Shown: positions 4,305 through 21,823 of the stretch, piece by piece
Layout: each line of letters begins with the position of its first letter
How positions within the stretch are numbered: position 1 is the stretch's first letter
Source: Chthoniobacteraceae bacterium
GTDB lineage: Bacteria; Verrucomicrobiota; Verrucomicrobiia; Chthoniobacterales; Chthoniobacteraceae
DNA: 21,823 nucleotides
NCBI GenBank assembly: GCA_031409335.1
Contig: JANNWY010000280.1
Span: 1 to 21,823 of the forward strand
Direction of reading: 5' to 3'
Notes under the pieces: generated by a model
The model's database searches: none
Seen by the model: only the letters and a program-made list of their open reading frames with translations
Told to the model about the DNA's origin: nothing
Program-made: the position numbers and the translations under genes

Positions 4305-4408
4305 CCATGCGGGTTCCCGGTCCATCCGGGCATCCGCCATGCAGGCATTTTCGATGAGCGCATTTGCCACGCGCTCCGCACCGAGTAGTCTTTAACGCAT
4401 CCAAAACA

Positions 4409-6082
4409 ATGGACGCAGAATCCTTCGAACTTACTCCAGACGAATCCTTGCCCGGCCTTCTCGAAAGGCTCGACCAAACCATCGCCGCGCTGCCGCCGGG
4501 CGACATGGTGCGTGAAGAATTGCTCTCGCTGCGCGGCGATGTCGCCGAGCAGGAGGACATCCTGATCGAAGCGCGCGAAGCGCTCGAGAAATACGAAGCG
4601 ATCGTGAAAAAGCTCAGCTCGCCCGCAAATCGAATCGGCACTTTTCTCGGCGCGCATCAGCGGGATACCGCGCAAATCGTCGTGGGCGGGGCGGATTATT
4701 TTTGCAACCTCGACCCGCGCGTGGACCTCATGCATTTGCGCCGCGGCACGCGCGTCCTAGTCAATGAAGCGTATGTAATCGTCGGCGATCTCGGTTACGA
4801 CAAGACGGGGCCGGTGGTGAAAGTGACCGAGGTGCTCGGGCCGGATCGCCTGCGCGTCGGCAGCGAGCACGGACAGCAGTCGATCGTGATCCAGCGCGGG
4901 GATTCCATCGCCAAGGAAAAGCTGAAAGTCGGCGATGAAGTGCGCGTGGATGCCAACTACAAAGTGGGCATCGAAGCGCTCGCGAAGCCGCACAGCGACG
5001 AGTATTTTCTCGACTCCGTGCCGGAGTTGCCGTGGGAAAAAGTGGGCGGCCAGCAGGAGGCGCTCGCGGCGATTCGCGATGCGATCGAGCTGCCGCTGCT
5101 GCACCCGGATTTGTTCGCGCGCTTCCAGCACGAGACGCCAAAGGGCTTCCTGCTCTACGGCCCGCCCGGCTGTGGAAAAACGCTGATCGGAAAAGCGACC
5201 GCGTACAATCTGACGCAGCAGCTCAAGCGCGAATCCGGTGAGGAGATGCGCGAGTATTTCATGCACATCAAGGGACCGGAAATCCTGAACATGTGGGTGG
5301 GCGAAAGCGAACGCATGGTCCGCGAAATCTTCGCGACCGCGCGGGAGAAACGCCGCGAAGGTTATCTGCCGTTTCTCTTCATCGACGAGGCGGAGAGCAT
5401 CCTCGGCACGCGCCGCGCGGGCCGCTGGTCGTCGATCCTCAGCACGCTCGTGCCGATGTTTTGCACGGAGATGGATGGCATCGAATCGCTGAACGAAGTC
5501 GTGATCATCCTCGCGAGCAATCGCGCCGATTTGATCGACCCGGCCATCCTGCGTCCCGGACGCATCGACCGGAAGATCAAGGTCAACCGCCCGACGCGGG
5601 ACGGAGCCAGCGAAATTTTCAGAATCTACCTCACTCCCGATCTGCCGTACGATCCCGCGCTCATCCGCGAGACCGGCAGCGTGGAAGCGGCCATCGCGTC
5701 GGTCGTCGAAAAAATGACCGAGCTCGTCTTCGGAAAACGCGAGGAAAATAAATTCCTCAGCATCACGCTGCGCAGCGGAAAAAAAGACACGCTCTACCGC
5801 GGCGACCTCATCAGCGGTGCGATCATCGCAAGCATCGTCTCGCGCGCGAAAGGGCTCGCCATCAAACGAGCGATCTCGACCGGCGATGAAGAGGGAATCA
5901 GCGAAGCCGATCTGCGGCTCGGCTTCGAGGCGGAGTACGGCGCAAACGATATTTTCCCGCCGAGCGACATCACGGAAGACTGGCTGCACCTCATCGACTA
6001 CGACGCGGAAAACGTGGTGAAAGTCTCCCCAATCCGGCCGGGCGACGCGGCGAAGGAACGGCGGACTGGCGGCGTGATCTGA
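4409..6082 (+). CDS. arc: ARC/Mpa-like proteasome-associated AAA+ ATPase
   Basis: N-terminal coiled coil, OB-fold region (RVLVNEA), IELPLLHPDLF, Walker A GPPGCGKT, IKGPEILNMWVGESER, Walker B FIDEAE and SRH ASNRADLIDPAILRPGRIDRKIKV. Confidence 0.85.
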   Translation: MDAESFELTPDESLPGLLERLDQTIAALPPGDMVREELLSLRGDVAEQEDILIEAREALEKYEAIVKKLSSPANRIGTFLGAHQRDTAQIVVGGADYFCNLDPRVDLMHLRRGTRVLVNEAYVIVGDLGYDKTGPVVKVTEVLGPDRLRVGSEHGQQSIVIQRGDSIAKEKLKVGDEVRVDANYKVGIEALAKPHSDEYFLDSVPELPWEKVGGQQEALAAIRDAIELPLLHPDLFARFQHETPKGFLLYGPPGCGKTLIGKATAYNLTQQLKRESGEEMREYFMHIKGPEILNMWVGESERMVREIFATAREKRREGYLPFLFIDEAESILGTRRAGRWSSILSTLVPMFCTEMDGIESLNEVVIILASNRADLIDPAILRPGRIDRKIKVNRPTRDGASEIFRIYLTPDLPYDPALIRETGSVEAAIASVVEKMTELVFGKREENKFLSITLRSGKKDTLYRGDLISGAIIASIVSRAKGLAIKRAISTGDEEGISEADLRLGFEAEYGANDIFPPSDITEDWLHLIDYDAENVVKVSPIRPGDAAKERRTGGVI

Positions 6083-6113
6083 GCCCGTGTCGAAAAGGCG
6101 GGGTTCGCTGAAA

Positions 6114-6186
6114 TGTTCCCGCCGGGAATTGAACTCGGATAACCGGTTTAGGAAACCAGTGCTCTATCCATTTGAGCTACGGGAAC
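6114..6186 (-). tRNA. tRNA-Arg(CCT)
   Basis: Reverse complement GTTCCCGTAGCTCAAATGGATAGAGCACTGGTTTCCTAAACCGGTTATCCGAGTTCAATTCCCGGCGGGAACA folds as a cloverleaf with anticodon CCT. One A-C mismatch in the T stem; CCA is not encoded. Confidence 0.93.
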
Positions 6187-10198: not shown

Positions 10199-10663
10199 GT
10201 GCAACAAGATAACTGCCAGAGTTCCAGCGCCGCTCCGCCGACAGACTGTAGCGACCAGCCGCTGCTCTTTCAAGACCTTGGCGCGCGCAAGGTAGTGGCG
10301 GATTTTTCCGACGGACACTTGAGCAGCGACGGCGGCGCGCTGCTCTTGCGCCAGCTCGACCTTGCGGCCACGCGGATGAGCACCCCCTGGATGGCCAGTA
10401 ACCAGCTCCGGCTCTGGCTGACTGCCTTCGGCCCCTTCGACAGGCTCAGGGCCTTCGGCTACCTGCTCCTGGAACGGCTGCGCGCGCTGACCCCGCAAGG
10501 CACCGAACTGGCGCGCGCCAGCCTCGGGACGATCCGGCTGCGGCTCTTGAAAGTGGCCGCGCAAGTCCACGTGAACGTGCGGCTGGCCTCGGCCTACCCG
10601 CTGCAGCCGCTCTTTGCGCACTGCCACGCGCGGCTCCTGTGGCTGGCCACCGCCGTCGGCTGA
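10199..10663 (+). pseudogene. IS1380 transposase remnant (N-terminus fused to C-terminus, catalytic core deleted)
   Basis: The N-terminal motif RKVVADFSDGHLSSDGGALLL is joined directly to the C-terminal motif ASNQLRLW...GTIRLRLLKVAA...LASAYP; only 154 aa. Confidence 0.85.
10433..10459 (+). repeat. Micro-insertion element copy 1 (18-bp core + 9 bp)
   Basis: Core CCCTTCGACAGGCTCAGG (10433-10450) flanked by the direct repeat GCCTTCGGC (10424-10432 and 10451-10459). Confidence 0.85.
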
Positions 10664-10862
10664 ACCGCTCCGGCTCGGTTCCCCCACCTTCCCCCGTCCG
10701 CCGCCGCAGCCAAGAAAACGCCCCGGTGCAGCGTCACTCCTCCTACCCGCGCCGCGAAATCGCCCAGAAACACCAATCACGACTCGGACGGTGAGTTATG
10801 CGGCCTAGTGTGCTGGACGTGAAATAGCTATACAAAACAAAACGGACGCGTTGGGTTAGGGC

Positions 10863-12038
10863 ATGGCCCGTCCGATTCGCGTTCTCTCGCTTGATCCCGT
10901 CCAGCACCGGGAACTCCAAACCATGATCAAAAGACCCAAGGCGCCCCAACGCGAGGTGCGGCGGGCGCGCATCATCCTCGCCCGCGCCGCAGGTCTTAGC
11001 CAGCAGCAGACGGGGGATCGGGTGGGAGTCAACCGGCCGGTGGTCGCCAAATGGGAGGCGCGCTTTTTGCACGCTGGCATCCCCGGTCTGGCCGAAGCCC
11101 GGCGCTCCGGGCGCAAGCCCTCGATTGCCGCCGCGACCCGCGCCGCGATCATCACCCAGGCGACCTCGCCGCCGCCAGGACGCACCCAATGGTCCTCGCG
11201 CACCATGGCAAACGCCAAAGGGGTTTCCCACAACACGGTGCAACGGCTGTGGCGCGCCAACGACATCAAGCCGCACATCACGCGGACCTTTAAGATTTCC
11301 AACGATAGGAGTTTCGAGGCGAAATTTTGGGACGTCATCGGGCTCTATCTCGATCCATCCGAACGCTCGCTGGTGCTCTGTTGCGACGAAAAAAGCCAGT
11401 GCCCGTTTCGACAAGCTCAAGGCCCTGGGCAGGCGCTGGAGCGCACCCAACCAGGCCCGCACGGTCCTGAGCCTGCCGAAGGGCTGCCCTTGGGGCCGCA
11501 CCGGGTGCGCACAGGCACCCATGACTATATCCGCCTCGGCACCCTCACGCTCTTCGCCGCCCTGAGCTATCTGGACGGAAAAATATTCCGCCAGACGGAC
11601 GGGCACCACACCCACAAGGAATGGCTCTTGTTCCTCAAGCACCTCGAAAAGCAAACCCCCGCCGGCCTGACCCTCCACCTGATCATCGACAACTACGCCA
11701 CTCACAAACACCCGGCGGTCAAGAGTTGGATCCAATGGTGCAACGCGCGTCATCGCAAAAAGCACGGGGTGGAGCGCATGGTCCTGCACTTCACGCCGAC
11801 CTCATCCTCTTGGATGAACCTCGTCGAGCGCTTCTTCCGCGACCTCACCGTGGATTGCATTCGCGACGGCAGCTTCGCCAGCATTGGTGAACTGGTGGCC
11901 TCGATTGAGAGCTACCTCGCCCAGTGCGATCTCGATCCGAAGCGCTACGTCTGGAAAGCCAAAGGGCAGGAAATCCTCAGGAAAATCCAGCGGGCGAAAG
12001 GCGCCCTCACCGGAGGCGTCACGCAGAATTATTTATGA
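10863..12038 (+). CDS. IS630 family transposase (two 9-aa in-frame insertions)
   Basis: N-terminal HTH, FKISND, and the DDE triad CCDEK / IIDNYATH / WMNLVERFF. Confidence 0.92.
   Translation: MARPIRVLSLDPVQHRELQTMIKRPKAPQREVRRARIILARAAGLSQQQTGDRVGVNRPVVAKWEARFLHAGIPGLAEARRSGRKPSIAAATRAAIITQATSPPPGRTQWSSRTMANAKGVSHNTVQRLWRANDIKPHITRTFKISNDRSFEAKFWDVIGLYLDPSERSLVLCCDEKSQCPFRQAQGPGQALERTQPGPHGPEPAEGLPLGPHRVRTGTHDYIRLGTLTLFAALSYLDGKIFRQTDGHHTHKEWLLFLKHLEKQTPAGLTLHLIIDNYATHKHPAVKSWIQWCNARHRKKHGVERMVLHFTPTSSSWMNLVERFFRDLTVDCIRDGSFASIGELVASIESYLAQCDLDPKRYVWKAKGQEILRKIQRAKGALTGGVTQNYL
11404..11430 (+). repeat. Micro-insertion element copy 2
   Basis: Core CGTTTCGACAAGCTCAAG plus GCCCTGGGC; splits the expected KSQC-QALE motif by 9 codons. 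Confidence 0.75.
11457..11483 (-). repeat. Micro-insertion element copy 3 (inverted)
   Basis: Reverse complement CCCTTCGGCAGGCTCAGG plus ACCGTGCGG; splits the expected TQPG-LPLG motif by 9 codons. Confidence 0.8.
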
Positions 12039-12060
12039 ATAGCTATTTAACGCCCAGCAC

Positions 12061-12535
12061 AAGGCGGGGGTGCCGGGGGTGATGCTGCCAGATGCGCTGG
12101 CGGTGAAGCAGCCGGGGGCGGGGGAGTCGTGGCCGTAGTATTGGATGTTTCGCTCGGCGAGCCTTTCGGAGGACCCGAGGGTGGGGGCAGGGAGGACGGC
12201 CGGCGGCGAGGGCGCGGCGGAAACTTCGTGCGACGGGGGCGTCGCAGCCACGAGGCGGCGGCATCATCTGCACGAGGTCGGCATTTCACGGGAGCTGGCG
12301 CGGGCGGGGAAGATGGCGGGTCTGGCAAAGCGGGTGACGGCGCATTGCCCCGTTCGACTTCGCTCAGGGCCTAACGCTGCGGCACTCGTATGCAACGCAC
12401 CTACTACTAAGGGGCGTGGATACTCGCAGCATCCAGGGGCCTGCTGGGGCATGCGGATGTGCGGACGACGGATATCTATACGTAACTGGCGCGGGCGATG
12501 CGGGGGAGATCACGAGTCCGTTGGATGATTTGTGA
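12061..12535 (+). pseudogene. intI: Integron integrase (IntI-like), 3' half, degraded
   Basis: Reconstructed across frames: GVMLPDALAVKQPGAGESWP*YWMFRSASLSEDPR...RRHHLHE...KRVTAH[28-bp insert]TLRHSYATHLLLRGVDTRSIQ/LLGHADVRTTDIYT*LARAMR/EITSPLDDL*. It contains the IntI-specific insertion domain, with stops at 12136-12138 and 12483-12485 and three frameshifts. Confidence 0.85.
12349..12376 (+). repeat. Micro-insertion element copy 4 (28 bp, frameshifting)
   Basis: CCCGTTCGACTTCGCTCAGGGCCTAACG lies inside the integrase HxLR motif; exact boundary ambiguous by about 3 bp. Confidence 0.75.
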
Positions 12536-12675
12536 GGGGCGGTGAGGGGTGCTTCAAACCGGGTCGAGTTGAGAAACCTTGGGGTAGATTGCTGGATTCC
12601 TGTGCCCTTGCGTCGGAACGGTGTTTTCAATCCTGTGATTTTCCGCGCTGATGGGTTATCGAGGTCGGGCATTTT

Positions 12676-14188: not shown

Positions 14189-14404
14189 GTGAGCGGCAGT
14201 GGCGTTGTAGGCGGACGTGAAGGTGCGGATGCCGGCGGTGATGCCGGTCACGGTGCCGCGGGTGCCCTGAGCGGAGTCGAATGGGCCGAAGGGAAGGCAC
14301 CGCTGGAACCGCTGCCGTAGGTCAGGATTGCGAAGACGTCGCTCACGCTTGGGATGAAGTTCGTCGGGCGGGCAATGTTTAGTGTGCCGATGATGGCGGC
14401 GATG
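14189..14404 (-). repeat. Repeat A3: degenerate copy of the giant gene's 3' end
   Basis: IAAIIGTLNIARPTNFIPSVSDVFAILTYGSGSSGAF[insert]GTVTGITAGIRTFTSAYNAT; the last codons are lost. Confidence 0.85.
14259..14293 (-). repeat. Micro-insertion element copy 5 (35 bp, apparently compound)
   Basis: CGGGTGCCCTGAGCGGAGTCGAATGGGCCGAAGGG interrupts GTGCCG-AAGG, which is contiguous in the other A repeats. Confidence 0.7.
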
Positions 14405-14411
14405 GTGGGCG

Positions 14412-14498
14412 GTGGGGATGGCTCACACGCTCACGATCACGCCTTGGGTCACGAGCGCGGCGGGGACGAGGATCGTGCCTTGGTTGAATTCGCCTGAC
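14412..14498 (-). repeat. Repeat B2: orphan 3'-end fragment of a second gene
   Basis: SGEFNQGTILVPAALVTQGVIVSV* (stop at 14423-14425); near-identical to 16279-16362. Confidence 0.85.
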
Positions 14499-14874
14499 TC
14501 ACCAACTTACTCGCACCAAGCCGGAGACCTTGTCGAAGTGTGCGTTGCGGCTGAGAACTGGGAGTTGATGCTGGCGCGCGCGCGGCGATCCAGACATCGT
14601 TTTCCGGGATGGGTGTCCTCGCCTTTCTCAACTCCTCGCGCACATCGCCATAGTGCCGCGCCGTAATGCTGTGTGCATCGAGCACTGGCAAAGCCGTTTC
14701 CATTCGCTCCAGCCATTCCTCCCGCGCCGCGCGGTCTCGCGTCACCTTGATGCCAAAGCGATATTCGCCGAGGACGATGACAGCCAGATACAAGGGACGG
14801 TCGGACGGCAGCACGGCGAGAAACTCACGGTCGTCGTCGCACCACGCGGAAAGAGCGTTGGTGTCGAGGATCAC
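14499..14874 (-). pseudogene. vapC: VapC-like PIN-domain toxin, frameshifted
   Basis: MILDTNAL...VLGEYRFG...PIPENDVWIAA, then a frame change in a GC dinucleotide run (~14574-14585). The natural tail RQHQLPVLSRNAHFDKVSGLVRVSW* continues in another frame to TGA at 14501-14499. Confidence 0.85.
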
Positions 14875-15113
14875 CGCCAGGTTTCCAAATCGATTCGCCC
14901 GAACTCGCTGGCGATGCGCCGCTCGACCTGGCGCGACTCCGCTTTATCCACCTTCGGCGGAGGCACCGGCCAGATCTTTCGCTTCCTCGCCCCGCCACCG
15001 GCGAGCCTTGCCCTAACCGCCCCGGCAAAAAAGCTCCCCACGGAAACACCGTGTTTGCGTGCCGCAGTCTGCGCGTCACGGAAGAGTGAATCGGGAATTA
15101 CAATGCTTTTCAC
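14871..15113 (-). CDS. Putative RHH/CopG-type antitoxin
   Basis: GTG start at 15113 gives MKSIVIPDSLFRDAQTAARKHGVSVGSFFAGAVR (strand-helix-helix pattern); GTGA overlap with vapC. Confidence 0.7.
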   Translation of the reverse strand: MKSIVIPDSLFRDAQTAARKHGVSVGSFFAGAVRARLAGGGARKRKIWPVPPPKVDKAESRQVERRIASEFGRIDLETWR

Positions 15114-15119
15114 GGCTGC

Positions 15120-15149
15120 ATCATCTCCGCAGAAACAAGCTCCCGTCAA
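15120..15149 (-). promoter_or_regulatory. Candidate sigma70 promoter for the antitoxin-vapC pair (leaderless)
   Basis: TTGACG-18 nt-GATGAT-6 nt-GTG on the minus strand. Confidence 0.3.
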
Positions 15150-15206
15150 GAGCCGGCAAGGAATAGGAGCGGTCAACCTTCGCGATTTACGCCGCTTCTC
15201 CCCGGA

Positions 15207-15390
15207 TCACGTCACGTTGAGGGTCAGATTGGTGGCGGTGTAGGCGGGGGTGAAGGTGCGGGGGCCGGCGGCGGTGCCGGTCACGGTGCCGAAGCTGCCG
15301 GCATGACCATAGGAGTAGGTCAGGATCGCGAAGGCGTCGCTCACGCTCGGGATGAAATTCGTCGGGCGGGCGATGTTCAGCGTGCCGATC
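15207..15390 (-). repeat. Repeat A2: copy of the giant gene's 3' end
   Basis: IGTLNIARPTNFIPSVSDAFAILTYSYGHAGSFGTVTGTAAGPRTFTPAYTATNLTLNVT*, open frame with its own stop. Confidence 0.92.
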
Positions 15391-15475
15391 AATGCATCGC
15401 CCACTACCACGTCGAAGCCAGCCGGACACTCAATCGCTTCAAATTCACGCGATCCGCGATTTCGGCATTCTAAAT

Positions 15476-15805
15476 TCAGGTCGCATCCTGCCGCACCACC
15501 GTCAGCGTCCCCGGTTTGCAGGTTGCGAGAGCGGCGAGAACCTTGGGCATCAGCGGACGAGTGTCCGCCAGGCGATTGCTTTTCGCCTCGAGCGCGATGA
15601 CTGCGATTCGGAAACGGGTGAGGTTTTGCTGGTCATCCATATTGCCGTCCATCGTCACCAGCACCTCGAACCGCTTTTCTGCTTCCCGCAGCAACGCGCC
15701 ATTCTTCAGTCCGGCCCAGCCGATGAGCGGCACGGACTCGACGGTGTGACCCAGCAGATCGCGTCGCAGCCGCCAGTCGAGGTTCTCATCGAGGAGGATG
15801 TTCAA
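15476..15805 (-). CDS. DUF5615 / Mut7-C-like PIN toxin (VapC45-like)
   Basis: MNILLDENL...GWAGLKNGALL...FEVLVTMD...QQNL; lies directly downstream of DUF433. Confidence 0.85.
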   Translation of the reverse strand: MNILLDENLDWRLRRDLLGHTVESVPLIGWAGLKNGALLREAEKRFEVLVTMDGNMDDQQNLTRFRIAVIALEAKSNRLADTRPLMPKVLAALATCKPGTLTVVRQDAT

Positions 15806-15806
15806 C

Positions 15807-16019
15807 TCAGGCGGCGTGCAGCAGCTCTTTGCGGAATTCCTCCAACACCGCGATCACCTGCTCGCGCTTTACGCTCGGAAAGCCTTCGAGAAAGTCACCG
15901 ATGGAATCGCCCGCCTCCAAATGGTCGAAGAGGCTTTGCACCGGGACGCGAGTTCCGACGAAAACAACCGTGCCCCCTAATATCTCCGGGTCCACATGAA
16001 TGACGGATTCGAGTTTCAT
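15807..16019 (-). CDS. DUF433 antitoxin
   Basis: DPEILGGTVVFVGTRVPVQSLFDHLEAGDSIGDFLEGFPSV, the canonical DUF433 pattern. Confidence 0.92.
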   Translation of the reverse strand: MKLESVIHVDPEILGGTVVFVGTRVPVQSLFDHLEAGDSIGDFLEGFPSVKREQVIAVLEEFRKELLHAA

Positions 16020-16025
16020 AGTGCG

Positions 16026-16053
16026 AGGCTACGTGAATCGACAGTGTGTTCAA
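16026..16053 (-). promoter_or_regulatory. Candidate sigma70 promoter for DUF433-DUF5615 (leaderless)
   Basis: TTGAAC-16 nt-TAGCCT-6 nt-ATG on the minus strand. Confidence 0.35.
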
Positions 16054-16075
16054 GCTGGCCTTTTTGCGAACCACG

Positions 16076-16272
16076 TCACGTCACGTTGAGCACCAGGTTG
16101 GTGGCGGTGTAGGCGGGGGTGAAGGTGCGGGGGCCGGCGGTGGTGCCGGTCACGGTGCCGAAGGTGCCGCTGTGGTTGGTGTAGGTCAGTATTGGGAAGG
16201 CATCGCTCACGCTCGGGATGAAGCCCGTCGGGCGGGCGATGTTCAGCGTGCCGATGATGGCGGCGATGCCGT
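16076..16272 (-). repeat. Repeat A1: copy of the giant gene's 3' end
   Basis: GIAAIIGTLNIARPTGFIPSVSDAFPILTYTNHSGTFGTVTGTTAGPRTFTPAYTATNLVLNVT*, open frame with its own stop. Confidence 0.93.
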
Positions 16273-16278
16273 GCGGTT

Positions 16279-16362
16279 GGGATGACTTACACGCTTACGA
16301 TCACGCATTGGGTCACGAGCGCGGCGGGGACGAGGATTGTGCCTTGGTTCAATTCGCCTGAC
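16279..16362 (-). repeat. Repeat B1: orphan 3'-end fragment of a second gene
   Basis: SGELNQGTILVPAALVTQCVIVSV* (stop at 16287-16289); near-identical to 14412-14498. Confidence 0.85.
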
Positions 16363-16406
16363 ATTTACGACTCATCCGCATGCAAGACTCACGGCTCATG
16401 GCCTTT

Positions 16407-17057
16407 TTATTTTGATGGGGCTGTTCCTGGCCGGGTTCGCAACGGCCGCGAGCAGAAGCGCCTGCCGCGATACCACACGCACCGAACTCCCTGCTCATTT
16501 TCTGGATCAGTTCTAAACTTCGACTCGATCTTTTCACGAAGACCGTCGTAAGTGCGAACCTCGCAGAAACCACCGCGCTCCAGACTGAGCGACTCAAAGC
16601 GTTCTTTGCGGCGCACGTTACTGATTGAGTTTCGGCGTCCGACGACCAGGAGCGATTTCACGACAAAGAAACCCGCCTTCGTTTCTCCTGTTCCATAGTA
16701 GAGAGGTGCAAAAAGCGACGAAAGCTCATTTTGGTGGCGGGCGCCCCACACCGTCCAGTCCCGGACCTGTTGGGCAGCATGATTGAATTGCGCAGTAAAC
16801 TCATCATTGGCGGTGAAGAACGTTAAAGAGGGCGACTCCAACTCGATGAGATGCAGATAGGTTGGTCCCGAAGTCGGCTCGATGAAGGCGAAGTCTGCTC
16901 GGAATTCAGTTCCAAGACGCAGTTGCGATACGACTGTATGCGCCAGGACGTAGCTTGACTCCACGAGCAAGTGGGGATGCCGTTCAAAGAATCGCTGAAT
17001 AGGTTTCTCGGCAGCCGGACCCCTCAGCAACTCATCAAATTCAGTATCGAGAGGCAT
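16407..17057 (-). CDS. DUF4263 (Shedu SduA-like) PD-(D/E)xK nuclease
   Basis: EKPIQRFFERHPHLL, RADF, LIELESP, AAQQVRDW (QxxxW), LVVGRR and VRTYDGL; lower GC than the flanks. Confidence 0.82.
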   Translation of the reverse strand: MPLDTEFDELLRGPAAEKPIQRFFERHPHLLVESSYVLAHTVVSQLRLGTEFRADFAFIEPTSGPTYLHLIELESPSLTFFTANDEFTAQFNHAAQQVRDWTVWGARHQNELSSLFAPLYYGTGETKAGFFVVKSLLVVGRRNSISNVRRKERFESLSLERGGFCEVRTYDGLREKIESKFRTDPENEQGVRCVWYRGRRFCSRPLRTRPGTAPSK

Positions 17058-17133
17058 CTTGCGATACAGTGCTTTTGCTCGTCGTCTGCTGCCAGGCGTT
17101 GAATGAGAATCGATCCATGCTCTTCGCGTCGGG

Positions 17134-20100
17134 CTATATTACATTGAGCGTCAGGTCGAGTGGGTTATAGGCGAGGTTGAAGATGCGGGGGCCGGCGGTG
17201 GTGCCGGTCACGGTGCCGAAGGCGCCGGTGTGGCCAGTGTAGGTCAGGATTGCGAAGGCGTCGCTCACGCTCGGAATGAAGCCGGTCGGGCGGGCGATGT
17301 TCAGCGTGCCGACGATGGCGGCGATGCCGTCCACCTGGATGCGGCCAAATTGCGTGATGGCAGTCCCGGTGATGTCCACGGTCACACTGCGGTTGGAAGC
17401 CATCGTGAAATTGCCGAGAGCGTGCAGCAATCCTCCCGCATGAATGGCGATGTCGGTCTTGTCCGCGGTGAATGTGCCGACGGTCATTGTTCCGGCGGAT
17501 ATATCAAAGCGTGTGGAGCCAGTGCCGATAATTGTCGCAAGGCTGTTCATGTTAATCTGCCCGCCGGTGGCCACGTTGAAGTCGAGCCGGTCGTAGCTGT
17601 TGCGTGCCGGTGCCGTAATCGATTGCAAAGCATTCATCTCGATCACCCCGTTACTGCTGGCGCTCACCGTATGGACTCGCCCGTTGTCATCGTCAAACCA
17701 GCCATCGTTGAAGACTTGCAGATTGGGGAAGCTCAGCCTGGTGCCATTGCCCGCCACCGACATCAGCGTGTCATTGAGGAACGGCAATCCATCCGCCCGG
17801 TAACTGGACGCCGGAATGCTCAACTGCGCTCCGCCGCTCAGCAGGAAACGGCTGTTGTCCACGTTGGTGAGCAATGGCGCATCAAAGACTGAATTCGTGC
17901 CGTTGTAGTTCAGAGTTCCGAACGTGAAGAACTGCAGCGTCGGGAAGTGGAAGTCGCCTCCGCGAACTGAGATCAAATCACCGCCGTCGAGCAAGGCGTT
18001 CTGCGCGGTGAGGCTGGCGTTGAGGCCGTCCACGATGAGGTCGGCTCCGTTGCTTACTTTCAGGATGCCGGCGATGTCGGAGGCGCCGGTGAGGGTGAGC
18101 GAGCCGCCGGTCACTTGCAGGGTGTCTTCGGTGAGGATGCTTTGCACTTTGATCGCACCGCTGGAGATGGTCACCGCTTTGCCGGGGTTCAGGGGCAGGG
18201 CGACGATGTCGCCGGCGGTGGGCAGGGTGCCGTTTTCCCAGTTGGCGAGGCTGTTCCAGTCGCCGCCGTCGGCGTTGATGAAGGTCTTGGTCGCATTGAC
18301 CACGCTGAAGTGCCGGTCGAGCGGGGTGGTGCCGAGGGCGTTGCCGCTGAGGTCGTGGAGGTTGGCGGCGTCGAGGCGCAGGGTGTAGGCGCCGGCGGCC
18401 AGCGGGTCGAAGGTGAGGGAGACTTGTTTGCCGAGCTGGCTGAAGGTCACGGTCTTCACGGGGACGGTCGCGCCGCCGGGGCCGGTGAGCGTGAAGTGAT
18501 CGGCTGTGAGGTCGGTCTGGGTGAGGGCTTCGTTGAAGAAGAGGCGCACGGTTTGCAGGCCGCCGGAGCGGGTGCCGCCTTCGGCGGGGTTCGAGCCGGT
18601 GAGGGCCGGGGCGGTGGTGTCGGCGATCAGGTCGAAGGTGAGCGTGTTCGAGAGGCCCACGTTGCCGCCGGTGTCGGTCGCGCGAATCTGGAGCGCGGTC
18701 TGGCCGCCCGCGGTGAGGCCGGCGGGGATGGCGCCGAACTCGAACGGGAACGAGGTGTCCGTGCCGATGACCACGCCGTCCTTGAGCAGTTCGACCGAGG
18801 CCACCTGCGTGTCGTCGGCCACGGTGAGTTTGATGGGAATGAGAGAGCCGGCCTGGACTTGCACGCCGGGCGCGACCGGGTCGCGATCGGCGCCGGTATG
18901 GGTAAGCGTCGCGGTGGGCGGCACGCCGGCGGTGTCGGCGGAGAGATAGTTCACCACCACGAGCCCGCCGGTGCCGTCAGCGATGAAGGCCATGCCGTTG
19001 GCAATGGTCACATCTTGGGGATCGGCGGGCAGGGTAAATTGCGTGACAAGGTTGTTTGTCTTCGTCACGTCCGTGACGCGGAGCAGATGGACGAGGTTGC
19101 CGAGAACGGCGGGGCTGCCGACGGCCACGGCGAGACCCGAACCGTTCAGCGCGATCCCATGCCCCGCGATGTTGATCGCATCCACGCCACTGAGCAGTGT
19201 CAGCGCATTGGGATTGGAAACATCCACCGTCGCATAACCGCCAGCCGCGCTGTTCGTAGCCGACTCCGTTGAGATGTAAGCGACGCCATCACCCACTGTC
19301 AGCTTTCCACCGCCCACCGGTGCGGTAATCGAACCCTGCTTTACGACGGACGGTCCGCTGAGGTTGAATACCGTGAGATGGTTCCCGGCGTCCATTGTGT
19401 AAAGATGATCGCCCTCAATGGCGATCCCCGTTATCGCATCGTTTCCGACCGAAACGGTCTGAAACAATTCGCCCGTTTCGAGGCTATAAGCTCGGATGAC
19501 CGTGCCGTCATTCGCGTAAGCAATCCCGGCGTGAATTTCGACTTGAGTGGCATTGATTGGGATCGAGTGAGTTAGGACCGGCGCACGGGTGTCCACAATG
19601 TCGAGAAAGTTTAAGCCGCCCACACCGGCTGCCACCGCAGCAAGTGCCAAACCAGAGTCAACTGCAACATCCACCGCATCCCCAGAAAGGTCTATCTCGG
19701 ATATTACTGCTGGTGCCGCTCCTATTCCCGCAGACACCACAGCCAGTCCACCGCTGCCCGATGCGACGTAAGCAAGAGGCTGAAGTCCATTCGGATTGCT
19801 GATAACGACTGCTTTCGCTTCGCCATTTAGATTTACCGAAGAGATAATCCCTGTATTTGCAGATCGCCCCCCAATTGGACTCAATCCCGAGCGAACCTCC
19901 GGTCCGTCCTCAACCCCGTCATGGTCCGTGTCGGCTAATGAATTAGAAGTTCCAAGGACCAGTTCTGCGGCGTCGGCAAGCCCATCGGAATCTAAGTCTG
20001 GTAGCTCGGAGCAAGAGGCAAGTATCGGTCGATGCCACCCATATCCAAGCCGAGTGTCATCGTATCCAGGGCCCCAAGAAACACTATCAGTAATGCGGTC

Positions 20101-21690
20101 GTAGAACCCTGCCGCGACGACTTTGGAATCCGACGGAATGAAAATCTCTAACTTTCCATACGCTTGCGTCATTCCTCGGAATATCTGGCGATCACCACCG
20201 GCACTTTCGGTAACGATCGCGTAATTCATCGGGTATCCTGGTTCGTTACCGAGGGTGTCGTTCCCTTTTTGCCGCAGGCCTTCCGTTATTTCGCCAAAGA
20301 CACTATTCAGATAGGAAAGCAGATCACTGCCGACGATCGCTTCCATCTGTGCCAACAATCCACGAACTTGGTTTTCAACTCCAAAAGGAACCGTTTCCTG
20401 TTTGACAACAAATGGATACACGACGTCCAAAACTTGGGTGGCGAGTCCTGAAATAGCAGCCCAAATTCCGTTACCTACGGCGGTGCTCGCAACTGACGCC
20501 AACCGTGGAGTACTGCCGCCCAGAATGCACGGTGGAACATTGTCGCAGTCGGCAGCTGAAAGTCCGCTCAATATGCATGACAAAACAGTGACCGCTATTC
20601 CAACAGGATTTCCTCCACCACCGGTGGCGAGTCCATAGCCACATACTAATCCGCCGCCGATTGTGAACAGACCACATTTCGAGAAGTCAGGGTTTGGCAC
20701 ACTTCCGGGCGGACAGGGGTTATTCGGTAATGGCGGTGGGGGATTCGGAGTAGGCGTGCCATTCGGGGTGGCAGGAGGAGTGTTAGTTGGGACTGGTGTG
20801 GGCGGCGAGGGCACCGGTCGTCCAGCCGGTGCTACATGTGTCCATCCAGGTTTCGTAACGCCACTGCCGGGATCTGTAACAACACTAAGACCGTCTGGGG
20901 AAACTGTCGCCGTTCCATTGAGTTCCAGCCGTCCTGTTGTGTGATCGAAACTCATGAGGTTCAGTTTCGTTCCCGGAGCAGCGTTAAATAAGTTCGGAAA
21001 CGAAATCTTGAGTGGTTCTGCGAACGTGGACGCATTCGGCGCCTGGATAGTAATATCGAATGCGTGCTGAAGCAGGCCAGGCGGGAGCATGTCCCGAATT
21101 AGCTCAGGCGGGACGGTGCTGATGCCAATTTGAGGATTGCTTAGCGGCTGTCCGTCGGCACCCAACACACTGCCGGGTTGAACTTCCAATTGCAGAAACG
21201 GACGCTGGGCGTCGGTCAGGTTTGGGGCGGACTTGGCATCGACGCCGATCATCGTGTTTCCAATCGCGCTTACGTCTTGCAGGATCGAGGTCTGCAAGCG
21301 CGGGAGATAGACTTCCTTGCGGCCGGCGTTGGCGATCTGGTCGGCGGTTTCGCCCATCGAATCCATGACGGTGTTGGCTGTGCCGGGGACGATTTTCAGG
21401 TCCATGACCATCTCCGGGAAGTAGAAGCCGGCGGGCTTGTTCGTGGCGGTGTTGCCATCGATGGCGAGCTTCACGTTTCCACCGGGGACGCTCGGGAGGG
21501 TGAAATTGCCCTGGGCGTCGGTGGTGGTGAAGACGGTGTTTTCCAAGCCGACGACGAAGACTTTCACGCCGGCGATGGGATTGAGGAAGACGTCGTCGGC
21601 GGTGTGCGCGATGCCGTCGGGGCCGGCGCGGAAGTCGTCGAAGGTCATCGGCTTCAAGTCGATGCCGGGATCGACGACCTTGCCGCTAAC
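17134..21690 (-). CDS. Giant multidomain surface/secreted protein, 3' portion (interrupted at 21690 by an IS, so probably inactivated)
   Basis: About 1,520 open codons: carboxypeptidase-regulatory-like Ig region, Pro-rich linker, Cys/hydrophobic segment, DxDxDG Ca-binding repeats, LVIVD-like propeller, Ig-like domains, beta-helix-like region and a C-terminal beta domain (A0, 17134-17330). Confidence 0.8.
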   Translation of the reverse strand, partial: VSGKVVDPGIDLKPMTFDDFRAGPDGIAHTADDVFLNPIAGVKVFVVGLENTVFTTTDAQGNFTLPSVPGGNVKLAIDGNTATNKPAGFYFPEMVMDLKIVPGTANTVMDSMGETADQIANAGRKEVYLPRLQTSILQDVSAIGNTMIGVDAKSAPNLTDAQRPFLQLEVQPGSVLGADGQPLSNPQIGISTVPPELIRDMLPPGLLQHAFDITIQAPNASTFAEPLKISFPNLFNAAPGTKLNLMSFDHTTGRLELNGTATVSPDGLSVVTDPGSGVTKPGWTHVAPAGRPVPSPPTPVPTNTPPATPNGTPTPNPPPPLPNNPCPPGSVPNPDFSKCGLFTIGGGLVCGYGLATGGGGNPVGIAVTVLSCILSGLSAADCDNVPPCILGGSTPRLASVASTAVGNGIWAAISGLATQVLDVVYPFVVKQETVPFGVENQVRGLLAQMEAIVGSDLLSYLNSVFGEITEGLRQKGNDTLGNEPGYPMNYAIVTESAGGDRQIFRGMTQAYGKLEIFIPSDSKVVAAGFYDRITDSVSWGPGYDDTRLGYGWHRPILASCSELPDLDSDGLADAAELVLGTSNSLADTDHDGVEDGPEVRSGLSPIGGRSANTGIISSVNLNGEAKAVVISNPNGLQPLAYVASGSGGLAVVSAGIGAAPAVISEIDLSGDAVDVAVDSGLALAAVAAGVGGLNFLDIVDTRAPVLTHSIPINATQVEIHAGIAYANDGTVIRAYSLETGELFQTVSVGNDAITGIAIEGDHLYTMDAGNHLTVFNLSGPSVVKQGSITAPVGGGKLTVGDGVAYISTESATNSAAGGYATVDVSNPNALTLLSGVDAINIAGHGIALNGSGLAVAVGSPAVLGNLVHLLRVTDVTKTNNLVTQFTLPADPQDVTIANGMAFIADGTGGLVVVNYLSADTAGVPPTATLTHTGADRDPVAPGVQVQAGSLIPIKLTVADDTQVASVELLKDGVVIGTDTSFPFEFGAIPAGLTAGGQTALQIRATDTGGNVGLSNTLTFDLIADTTAPALTGSNPAEGGTRSGGLQTVRLFFNEALTQTDLTADHFTLTGPGGATVPVKTVTFSQLGKQVSLTFDPLAAGAYTLRLDAANLHDLSGNALGTTPLDRHFSVVNATKTFINADGGDWNSLANWENGTLPTAGDIVALPLNPGKAVTISSGAIKVQSILTEDTLQVTGGSLTLTGASDIAGILKVSNGADLIVDGLNASLTAQNALLDGGDLISVRGGDFHFPTLQFFTFGTLNYNGTNSVFDAPLLTNVDNSRFLLSGGAQLSIPASSYRADGLPFLNDTLMSVAGNGTRLSFPNLQVFNDGWFDDDNGRVHTVSASSNGVIEMNALQSITAPARNSYDRLDFNVATGGQINMNSLATIIGTGSTRFDISAGTMTVGTFTADKTDIAIHAGGLLHALGNFTMASNRSVTVDITGTAITQFGRIQVDGIAAIVGTLNIARPTGFIPSVSDAFAILTYTGHTGAFGTVTGTTAGPRIFNLAYNPLDLTLNVI

Positions 21691-21823
21691 AGCCTGTTGA
21701 AAAACCTTCCAACAAGGCAGAGCTAGAAGGATAGATAGAGGCAATATGTTTGAGCGACGCGAAGACAGCGAAAAACAAAAAGAACTCTGGGTGCTTGCAG
21801 GAGAGTTACCCGAAGCCACGCCC
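21690..21823 (+). mobile_element. Left end of an IS1182/IS5-like insertion sequence
   Basis: Abrupt compositional break at CTAA|CAGCCTGTTGAAAAA (TIR-like sequence), followed by a GAGG RBS and a new ORF. Confidence 0.7.
21746..21823 (+). CDS. Transposase N-terminus (IS1182/IS5-like), partial
   Basis: MFERREDSEKQKELWVLAGELPEATP resembles the QxELW...ELP N-terminus of DUF772-type transposases; runs off the window edge. Confidence 0.6.
   Translation, partial: MFERREDSEKQKELWVLAGELPEATP

Follow-up and report, generated by a model that had tools for sequence, protein, structure and literature searches.

Orphan copies of a gene end alternate with Shedu-family and toxin–antitoxin genes behind a predicted surface-protein gene in a Chthoniobacteraceae bacterium

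The array and its cargo

The window analysed here is a stretch of 21,823 nucleotides (nt) from a Chthoniobacteraceae bacterium (Verrucomicrobiota), comprising the whole of contig JANNWY010000280.1 (C280) in assembly GCA_031409335.1, which amounts to 7.94 Mb in 326 contigs. On its minus strand, the 3′ end of a giant gene predicted to encode a surface protein is followed by diverged copies of that same gene end, which alternate with small genes of defence and toxin–antitoxin (TA) type (Table 1). The order runs from the attached end of the giant open reading frame (ORF), A0, through a gene of the SduA_C/DUF4263 family, repeat B1 and orphan tail A1 to a DUF433+DUF5615 pair, orphan tail A2, a small ORF with a PIN gene, repeat B2 and orphan tail A3. 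The Shedu-family gene, both TA pairs and the orphan tails are all co-oriented. This order and orientation had been proposed in a preliminary description made from the sequence alone, and are confirmed.

The orphan copies A1–A3 correspond to the last ~62 codons of the giant gene. BLASTN against the 7.9 Mb genome recovers them (E 2e-63, 1e-47 and 6e-26) and finds none off C280. In the coordinates of A0 the homology begins at 17330 for A1, 17326 for A3 and 17312 for A2, a span within 18 nt that agrees with the nearly common starting point noted earlier. Translation likewise confirms that A1 and A2 retain an open frame and stop codon, while A3 is disrupted by a 38-nt REP-like insert and an indel. 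The direct repeats bracketing the inserts are 176–191 nt long (that is, >30 bp) and 85–88% identical. The inserts themselves, of ~0.7–0.9 kb, contain only SduA and TA families and no integrase or transposase, so that each unit measures 0.9–1.1 kb. Repeat B precedes A1 and A3, whilst the second unit lacks it. A scan for promoters and terminators gave no excess over shuffled sequence, and Rfam found a single tRNA (6114–6186) in the window and nothing else. A predicted structure of the tail, with a mean pLDDT of 45, was not used.

Table 1. Features of the array and its surroundings (window coordinates)
Feature	Position	Strand	Support or remark
A0: attached gene end, repeated stretch; last 42 nt a divergent allele	17134..17330	-	
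Cargo 1: stand-alone Shedu-family (DUF4263) predicted nuclease, 216 aa	16407..17057	-	Pfam SduA_C E 5.5e-16; PADLOC SduA E 1.9e-27
B1: ~90-nt repeat joined to A1	16277..16362	-	89-92% to B2
A1: orphan tail, open frame and stop	16076..16272	-	88% to A0 over 191 nt
Cargo 2a: DUF433 antitoxin-type gene	15807..16019	-	Pfam DUF433 E 1.1e-17
Cargo 2b: DUF5615 PIN-like toxin-type gene	15476..15805	-	Pfam DUF5615 E 2.8e-7
A2: orphan tail, open frame and stop, one additional codon, different upstream junction	15207..15389	-	85% to A0 over 176 nt
Cargo 3a: 80-aa putative antitoxin, ribbon–helix–helix (RHH) unconfirmed	14871..15113	-	partner of PIN gene
Cargo 3b: PIN/VapC gene, frameshifted near 14573	14500..14874	-	Pfam PIN E 2.4e-7
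B2: second B copy, begins directly after VapC stop	14409..14499	-	
A3: most decayed orphan tail, broken; REP-like insert at 14264-14301	14198..14404	-	two pieces, 89% and 84%
3′ half of giant Ig-like/LVIVD predicted surface-protein gene	17134..21689	-	Pfam Big_5, Big_7, LVIVD; 5′ half on contig C24
End of multicopy insertion sequence interrupting giant gene, TTAG duplicated on both sides	21690..21823		
Decayed 3′ half of integron integrase gene, pointing toward the array, DUF1501 gene between	12043..12541	+	TIGR02249 matches below cut-off

The layout can hardly be an assembly artefact arising from mixed strains in a metagenome. Such an origin might be suspected from the fragmented assembly, from the presence of related strains in the same sequencing runs and from the fact that no single Logan contig spans the array. 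However, two runs holding most of the stretch (X1 and X2, freshwater-sediment metagenomes of one study) yield Logan contigs which cover 14252–15258, 15242–16127, 16135–17213 and 17193 onward with 0 differences, so that each cargo is joined to tails on both sides in both samples. Their depth is similar across the array (about 6–9 in X1, which may be the source sample, and 10–13 in X2), and the tail copies differ from one another by 12–26%, with longest identical stretches of only 17–43 nt. Since the Logan contigs break within the identical stretches of A, it is the junctions between cargo and repeat that are independently reproduced; the order of the units rests on the original assembly.

The first cargo is matched by 8 PADLOC SduA models as well as by Pfam, which bears out its earlier identification as a Shedu domain protein. 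SduA_C spans residues 17–173 of 216 with no N-terminal sensor, and 5 homologs are of the same size, at 210–220 aa. Type 2 Shedu is defined as DUF4263 alone (bioRxiv 10.1101/2023.08.10.552793), and cargo 1 resembles it in consisting of the nuclease domain by itself. In an assignment of the PD-(D/E)xK motif made by eye against that preprint, residues D55, E72 and Q96/Q97 are invariant. The position of the motif III lysine is occupied by a glutamate, E74 (E-x-E), in 6/6 aligned proteins. In this respect the protein is unlike Type 2 Shedu, and an anti-phage role is a prediction from its sequence.

In both TA pairs a small antitoxin-type gene lies directly ahead of a PIN-type gene. The preliminary description had recognised two type II TA pairs, and the DUF433+DUF5615 and PIN families were indeed found, but the supposed RHH antitoxin has no family match and the VapC gene is frameshifted. 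The 80-aa partner of the PIN gene matched nothing in Pfam or NCBIfam, and its C-terminal half resembles the genes that stand ahead of this PIN family in relatives. Near 14573 the VapC gene (homologs 125–130 aa) differs from a related contig by a 2-base indel, and is therefore probably dead.

The host gene is itself incomplete in the window. Its 5′ half lies on C24, where it is 63% identical to the ortholog, and the 134 bases at the contig end belong to an insertion sequence (IS) end present at 9 contig ends, the other end of the element being on C24. From this we infer that the giant gene is interrupted by an IS in this assembly. Joined, the two halves would encode about 3,000 aa; the longer relatives number 252 and range from 2,653 to 5,000 aa. 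The closest cores among named records are from Verrucomicrobia, and within the 1,562-aa frame Pfam reports neither an Rhs nor a haemagglutinin family. The middle of the gene (19500–21000) has a GC content of 0.51–0.56 against 0.66–0.70 downstream, and contains a Pro/Cys-rich stretch absent from the ortholog alignment; this internal part may have been exchanged. Elsewhere the assembly contains two decayed paralogs of the giant gene (L037, G000:C153:26000–37000, and L039 on C66). Both are followed by foreign-looking ORFs and TA pairs, Phd–PIN on C153 and ParD/ParE-like (by eye) on C66, and the tail homolog on C153 has the same REP-like insert as A3.

Recurrence of the tail and of displaced gene ends

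The tail of the giant gene is found repeatedly without the gene. A profile search of short proteins listed 40 of 64 candidates, one of them A2 itself; P0167 and P0169, unrelated members of the clusters, were dropped. Six of the other 39 start with the junction peptide of B and A seen in the window, and 2 more may do so, whilst others have three or more different start points. About 9 of the 39 carry the REP-like insert at the position where A3 has it, in mixed combination with the type of junction. Ten fall into four groups with contigs of equal length (2,843, 1,523, 1,354 and 1,273 bp), which suggests multi-copy arrays. Not all of these short proteins are orphans: P0148 clusters with a protein on a contig of the same size as L073, where the short frame results from a frameshift in an attached end. 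Contigs related to the array itself come from three studies, with VapC–B–A at ~85% identity in X1, a tail with DUF433 at ~91% in X5 and VapC with the start of B and the end of a tail in X9.

Among 150 other genomes of the family, a close tail was found by DNA comparison in 3, once in each. Two of these are orphans, one decayed and located behind a PEP-CTERM gene (G029), the other (G130) preceding the same convergent DUF5615-like gene, as judged by eye, that follows the attached tail of the ortholog L074. The ortholog, whose locus was also matched in G140 and is counted once, has a single tail and none of the cargos of the array within 8 kb. As a possible empty site it is limited by its distant relationship and by another gene coming next. 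A palindromic repeat with 17-nt arms adjoins the tail in three assemblies, standing before it in G130 and behind it in L073 and G029 (loci L078, L073 and L125).

A sample of 400 genomes of the order contained no further close tail, and the 130-aa tail had no match in genome contigs. The tail profile identified one locus in genome contigs, none in viral contigs and one in metagenome contigs, the last being a single frameshifted attached end followed by IS630. In plasmids the only match was to DUF433. The frame end lies within the locus in 12/27 loci with the giant-gene core, and none of these has a downstream orphan copy of the last 600 nt, the matches seen being repeats inside the frame or upstream of it. 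The idea that the tail serves as a recurring insertion point finds support in the related contigs of three studies, in the 39 tail-only proteins and in the divergence of the attached end, which is expected if incoming DNA supplies a new one. Joints of tail and cargo of the same types occur in relatives; no second multi-copy array was found as DNA in the 150 other family genomes.

Displaced gene ends are not confined to this locus. With our own hexamer gene caller, 4,786 genes were compared with the genome for displaced ends within 15 kb. Orphan 3′ ends were found downstream on the same strand for 23 genes, as against 5 upstream and 3 downstream on the opposite strand; orphan 5′ ends lay upstream of 10 genes and downstream of 6. 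The displaced 3′ copies measure 61–508 nt and end at or near the stop codon, with no common junction motif apparent by eye. The host genes include lepA, pdhC, glgE, priA, argF, ubiD, an ABC-F gene and prfC, all named by eye from their translations. Displaced 5′ ends were also noted at prfC and two cas1-like genes, likewise named by eye (L091, L093, L094), two of these loci having TA-like cargo.

A scan of the cargo, covering 68/90 ORFs from 28 loci, revealed no integrase or resolvase. Pfam supports cargo of TA or defence type in 6/28 loci, namely GmrSD, Phd with nucleotidyltransferase–HEPN and HNH, HNH, Uma2, PemK and PIN; the other loci hold ordinary genes or genes without assignment. PIN genes lie inside such intervals in 2/31 cases, compared with 72/5,798 of all called genes (Fisher p=0.058), and tyrosine-recombinase genes in 0/18. 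The preliminary description had treated the arrangement as special to the surface-protein gene or to defence cargo, a view which the census does not support. For lepA, a displaced copy on the same contig exists in 1/135 other family genomes with a match (G092); the copy starts at query position 203 there and 107 here, with a PIN gene in between. The G092 locus (L119, on C58) thus comprises lepA, the PIN cargo and a displaced end of 110 nt. Second lepA matches in G097, on what looks like a foreign contig, and in G113, on a separate contig end, were left uncounted. At a further locus (L127, G001:C1:143000–153000), TA genes and fragments are interleaved with three direct repeats of 79–234 nt. What appears to set the array apart from other displaced ends is recurrence, its tail having been used unusually often.

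Origin of the array

The copies themselves indicate which gene end arrived last. Pairwise identities among A0–A3 are 74–84%, and those to the ortholog are 76–82%; as proteins the tails are 74–84% identical to A0, or close to that. The differences between A0 and A1 are unevenly spread, with 6/77, 6/60 and 16/42 sites in successive segments from 5′ to 3′. The ortholog L074 was compared at the 20 sites that distinguish A0 from both A1 and A2, and it matches the orphans at 17 of them and A0 at 1. Because of this agreement the attached end is, on the evidence of the alignment, a mosaic newcomer, whilst the orphans keep the common type; this fits displacement of the old end and not outward duplication of A0. 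The most distal copy, A3, is also the most decayed.

The orphan tails are best read as scars of successive homology-anchored insertions, made by ordinary recombination, each of which pushed the old gene end downstream. We give this reading a probability of roughly 60%. Donor DNA from a related bacterium would carry its own version of the gene end together with a small downstream module, and would pair with the resident gene end. The far end of the donor would then join the resident gene at a microhomology ~190 nt before the stop codon, or the donor would first close into a circle. In either case the gene would retain a complete end and the old end would be moved downstream. The first joint between B and A may have formed by illegitimate recombination at an 11-nt GC-rich microhomology, in a homology-facilitated event or on closure of a circle. 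With a tail on either side of a module, recombination by the host could excise, move and re-insert units of tail and cargo among relatives. Units 1 and 3 share B and not their cargo, so one swap of cargo between tail and B would be needed.

Since recombination between tails would move whole units, a junction would be inherited and not cut anew, and the argument from shared breakpoints loses most of its force. The preliminary description had offered such breakpoints as support; the starts are indeed close, but A1 and A3 carry one and the same junction, which is weaker evidence than independent events would be. That the cargo is of TA and defence type is likely explained by how common and mobile such small modules are and how hard they are to lose, with no dedicated machine selecting them. 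ComEC and DprA genes are present in the genome; as they were also seen in 10 and 11 of 14 control genomes, respectively, they do not demonstrate competence. Ku was not found in the genome, which leaves Ku-dependent closure of a circle without support.

A purely local history is quite improbable. Under it, a block of tail, cargo and B was tandemly duplicated by unequal recombination in one lineage, TA and Shedu genes were inserted or swapped later, and the tails are decaying duplicates. This would account for the B shared by units 1 and 3 and for the weak third-position bias among the copies, and it suits a region rich in IS and decayed genes as well as TA modules which are mobile on their own (the genome has 31 PIN matches). 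It is at odds with the resemblance of the orphans to the end of a distant ortholog in place of the attached end, with three different cargos that preserve no remnant of a common one, with the frame and stop kept in A1 and A2, and with the recurrence of tail–cargo joints in other studies.

Site-specific integration offers another route, which we regard as unlikely. The units would be relics of integrative elements, in which the 11-nt overlap served as core site and B as attP arm or as the terminal part of an element gene; a recombinase, since lost or acting in trans, would insert modules that bring a replacement gene end with them. A third B copy (C227:2587–2683), which continues into the first 11 nt of A, lies directly behind a tyrosine-recombinase fragment (Phage_integrase E 0.0014) whose own relatives are weak and unrelated; the genome has 18 tyrosine-recombinase matches in all. 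A1 and A3 share their B–A junction with at least 6 tail-only proteins of other assemblies, all start points fall within about 60 nt, and genomic islands are typically recognised by a restored gene accompanied by a displaced fragment (Islander, PMC4383910). On the other hand, the small units contain no integrase, A2 and other tails have different junctions (at least three besides that with B), and the same scar occurs without a common motif at many unrelated genes. B was absent from genome contigs in a pattern scan; in the 150 family genomes it gave only short DNA matches of ≤49 nt, and as a peptide it was found in 0/150.

The remnant of an integron integrase gene near the array invites the idea of a decayed cassette array in which B is a degenerate attC. 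The remnant is 41–45% identical by tblastn (E 1e-16) to an intact IntI encoded elsewhere in the genome, near a contig end (G000:C166:399–1334). It is cut by an IS630-type element (10809–12061) and lies 1.7 kb from the array. TA genes are common as integron cassettes, and B2 has an RYYYAAC-like heptamer just after the VapC stop together with a 7-nt inverted repeat. B nevertheless forms no hairpin, folding no better than shuffled sequences (z -0.9 to +1.3), and a pattern scan of the window for attC, run without a positive control, found no site. The array is on the 3′ side of intI and separated from it by the 1.4-kb DUF1501 gene, unit 2 lacks B and the gene tails are not explained, all of which makes an integron origin very unlikely. 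REP-like sequence is inserted in several coding regions of the window (10433–10453, 11463–11483, 12333–12370 and 14264–14301), having hit both transposase genes, the intI remnant and A3; the genome has 28 motif matches.

Several observations weigh against successive homology-anchored insertions. The third-position excess is weak (8/10/11 differences by codon position between A0 and A1, 7/6/9 between A1 and A2), so that part of the divergence among copies may be neutral decay and not allelic difference. The same TA modules occur without a bracketing gene-end repeat in 9/9 loci of other genomes, and hence do not depend on this site. The comparison available includes no pair of empty and filled sites from one species. 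The B–A junction common to at least 6 unrelated assemblies is what a site-specific recombinase would also give. Some of the 23 cases in the census are probably decayed paralogs or repeats. Finally, contigs of 6 runs contain no excised or circular forms and no such joints, though contigs drop rare forms.

A bolder extension is tentative and, in our estimate, somewhat doubtful: the tail may be a lineage-wide dock for cassettes. Circles of tail and module with a fixed B–A junction would circulate among species of sediment Verrucomicrobia and stack anti-phage and TA genes, in an integron-like system built from coding sequence and dispensing with both attC and a dedicated integrase.

Two further features are recorded for completeness. 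A gene assigned by eye to the proteasome-associated (ARC/Mpa) type of AAA ATPases occupies the region 4364–6186 together with the minus-strand tRNA that follows it. Intergenic palindromes with tandem 7-mer arms are found on at least 10 contigs of the assembly (G000 C16, C71, C152, C192, C195, C197, C205, C297, C307 and C311).

Comparison with known systems

Insertion with long target duplication is said to have been described by Nobusato et al. in 2000. According to a later survey, by Furuta, Abe and Kobayashi (2010; PMC2853133), the duplicated repeats often extend over a start or stop codon without damage to the target gene. The array shares with such events a small insert of <20 kb without mobility genes and a direct repeat of >30 bp. 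It differs in that the cases described are restriction–modification genes and mostly single events, whereas here three units are stacked with Shedu and TA cargo, the repeats have diverged by 12–26% and a junction is shared across lineages. Restriction–modification cargo, the search criterion of the survey, is absent here, the Shedu-family and TA genes taking its place, and GmrSD occurs at one other locus of the genome.

Rhs loci and those of contact-dependent inhibition (CDI) likewise contain co-oriented orphan fragments of the 3′ part of an upstream gene. Jackson et al. (2009; PMC2935791) described this as 'C-terminal displacement' in Rhs and proposed circles and single crossovers for the strings of orphans. 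In the Rhs case the payload is a variable toxin tip within the gene, while here the tail is conserved and an unrelated payload stands behind the stop codon; nor does this locus have an Rhs or CdiA core that ends in a variable toxin tip and is followed by an immunity gene. The sequentially displaced effector–immunity arrays of the Vibrio type VI secretion system (T6SS) are attributed by Kirchberger et al. (2017; PMC5361080) to homology-facilitated illegitimate recombination; these authors draw a comparison with integrons and point out that no integrase is involved. In both cases repeated insertion would be anchored in a conserved upstream gene. In Vibrio the previous effector disappears while immunity genes accumulate, whereas the whole old module is kept here along with the old gene end.

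Integrase-driven islands also leave a restored gene at one end and a displaced fragment at the other, and form tandem arrays. Islander requires an integrase for each tandem member (PMC4383910), and the ~1 kb units described here have none. An integron would have an intact intI with attI adjoining the array, in contrast to the single decayed 3′ half 1.7 kb away. Judged by the features tested, the locus works like the displacement arrays and belongs neither to the Rhs/CDI loci nor to the integrons or integrase islands.

The preliminary description knew of no system of this form. That view has to be given up, since the Furuta, Jackson and Kirchberger papers (PMC2853133, PMC2935791, PMC5361080) match the architecture, and the general plan being already in print limits the surprise. 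Literature searches that excluded most subscription journals and all supplements found no report of such an arrangement carrying TA or defence genes. What is new here is the giant surface-protein host gene, the stacking of three units and the signs of lineage-wide reuse with a shared junction. If the proposed history is true, the array is a three-step record of small defence and TA modules entering a chromosome without the machinery of mobile elements, and an orphan copy of a gene end becomes a simple genome-wide signature for such insertions. The cargo behind other tail-only copies would then form a short list of candidate defence genes from a poorly studied phylum. Moreover, the locus would provide a tractable case for the question left by the Rhs and T6SS papers, namely which of two routes, circles with single crossovers or homology-facilitated illegitimate recombination, leads to the growth of such arrays.

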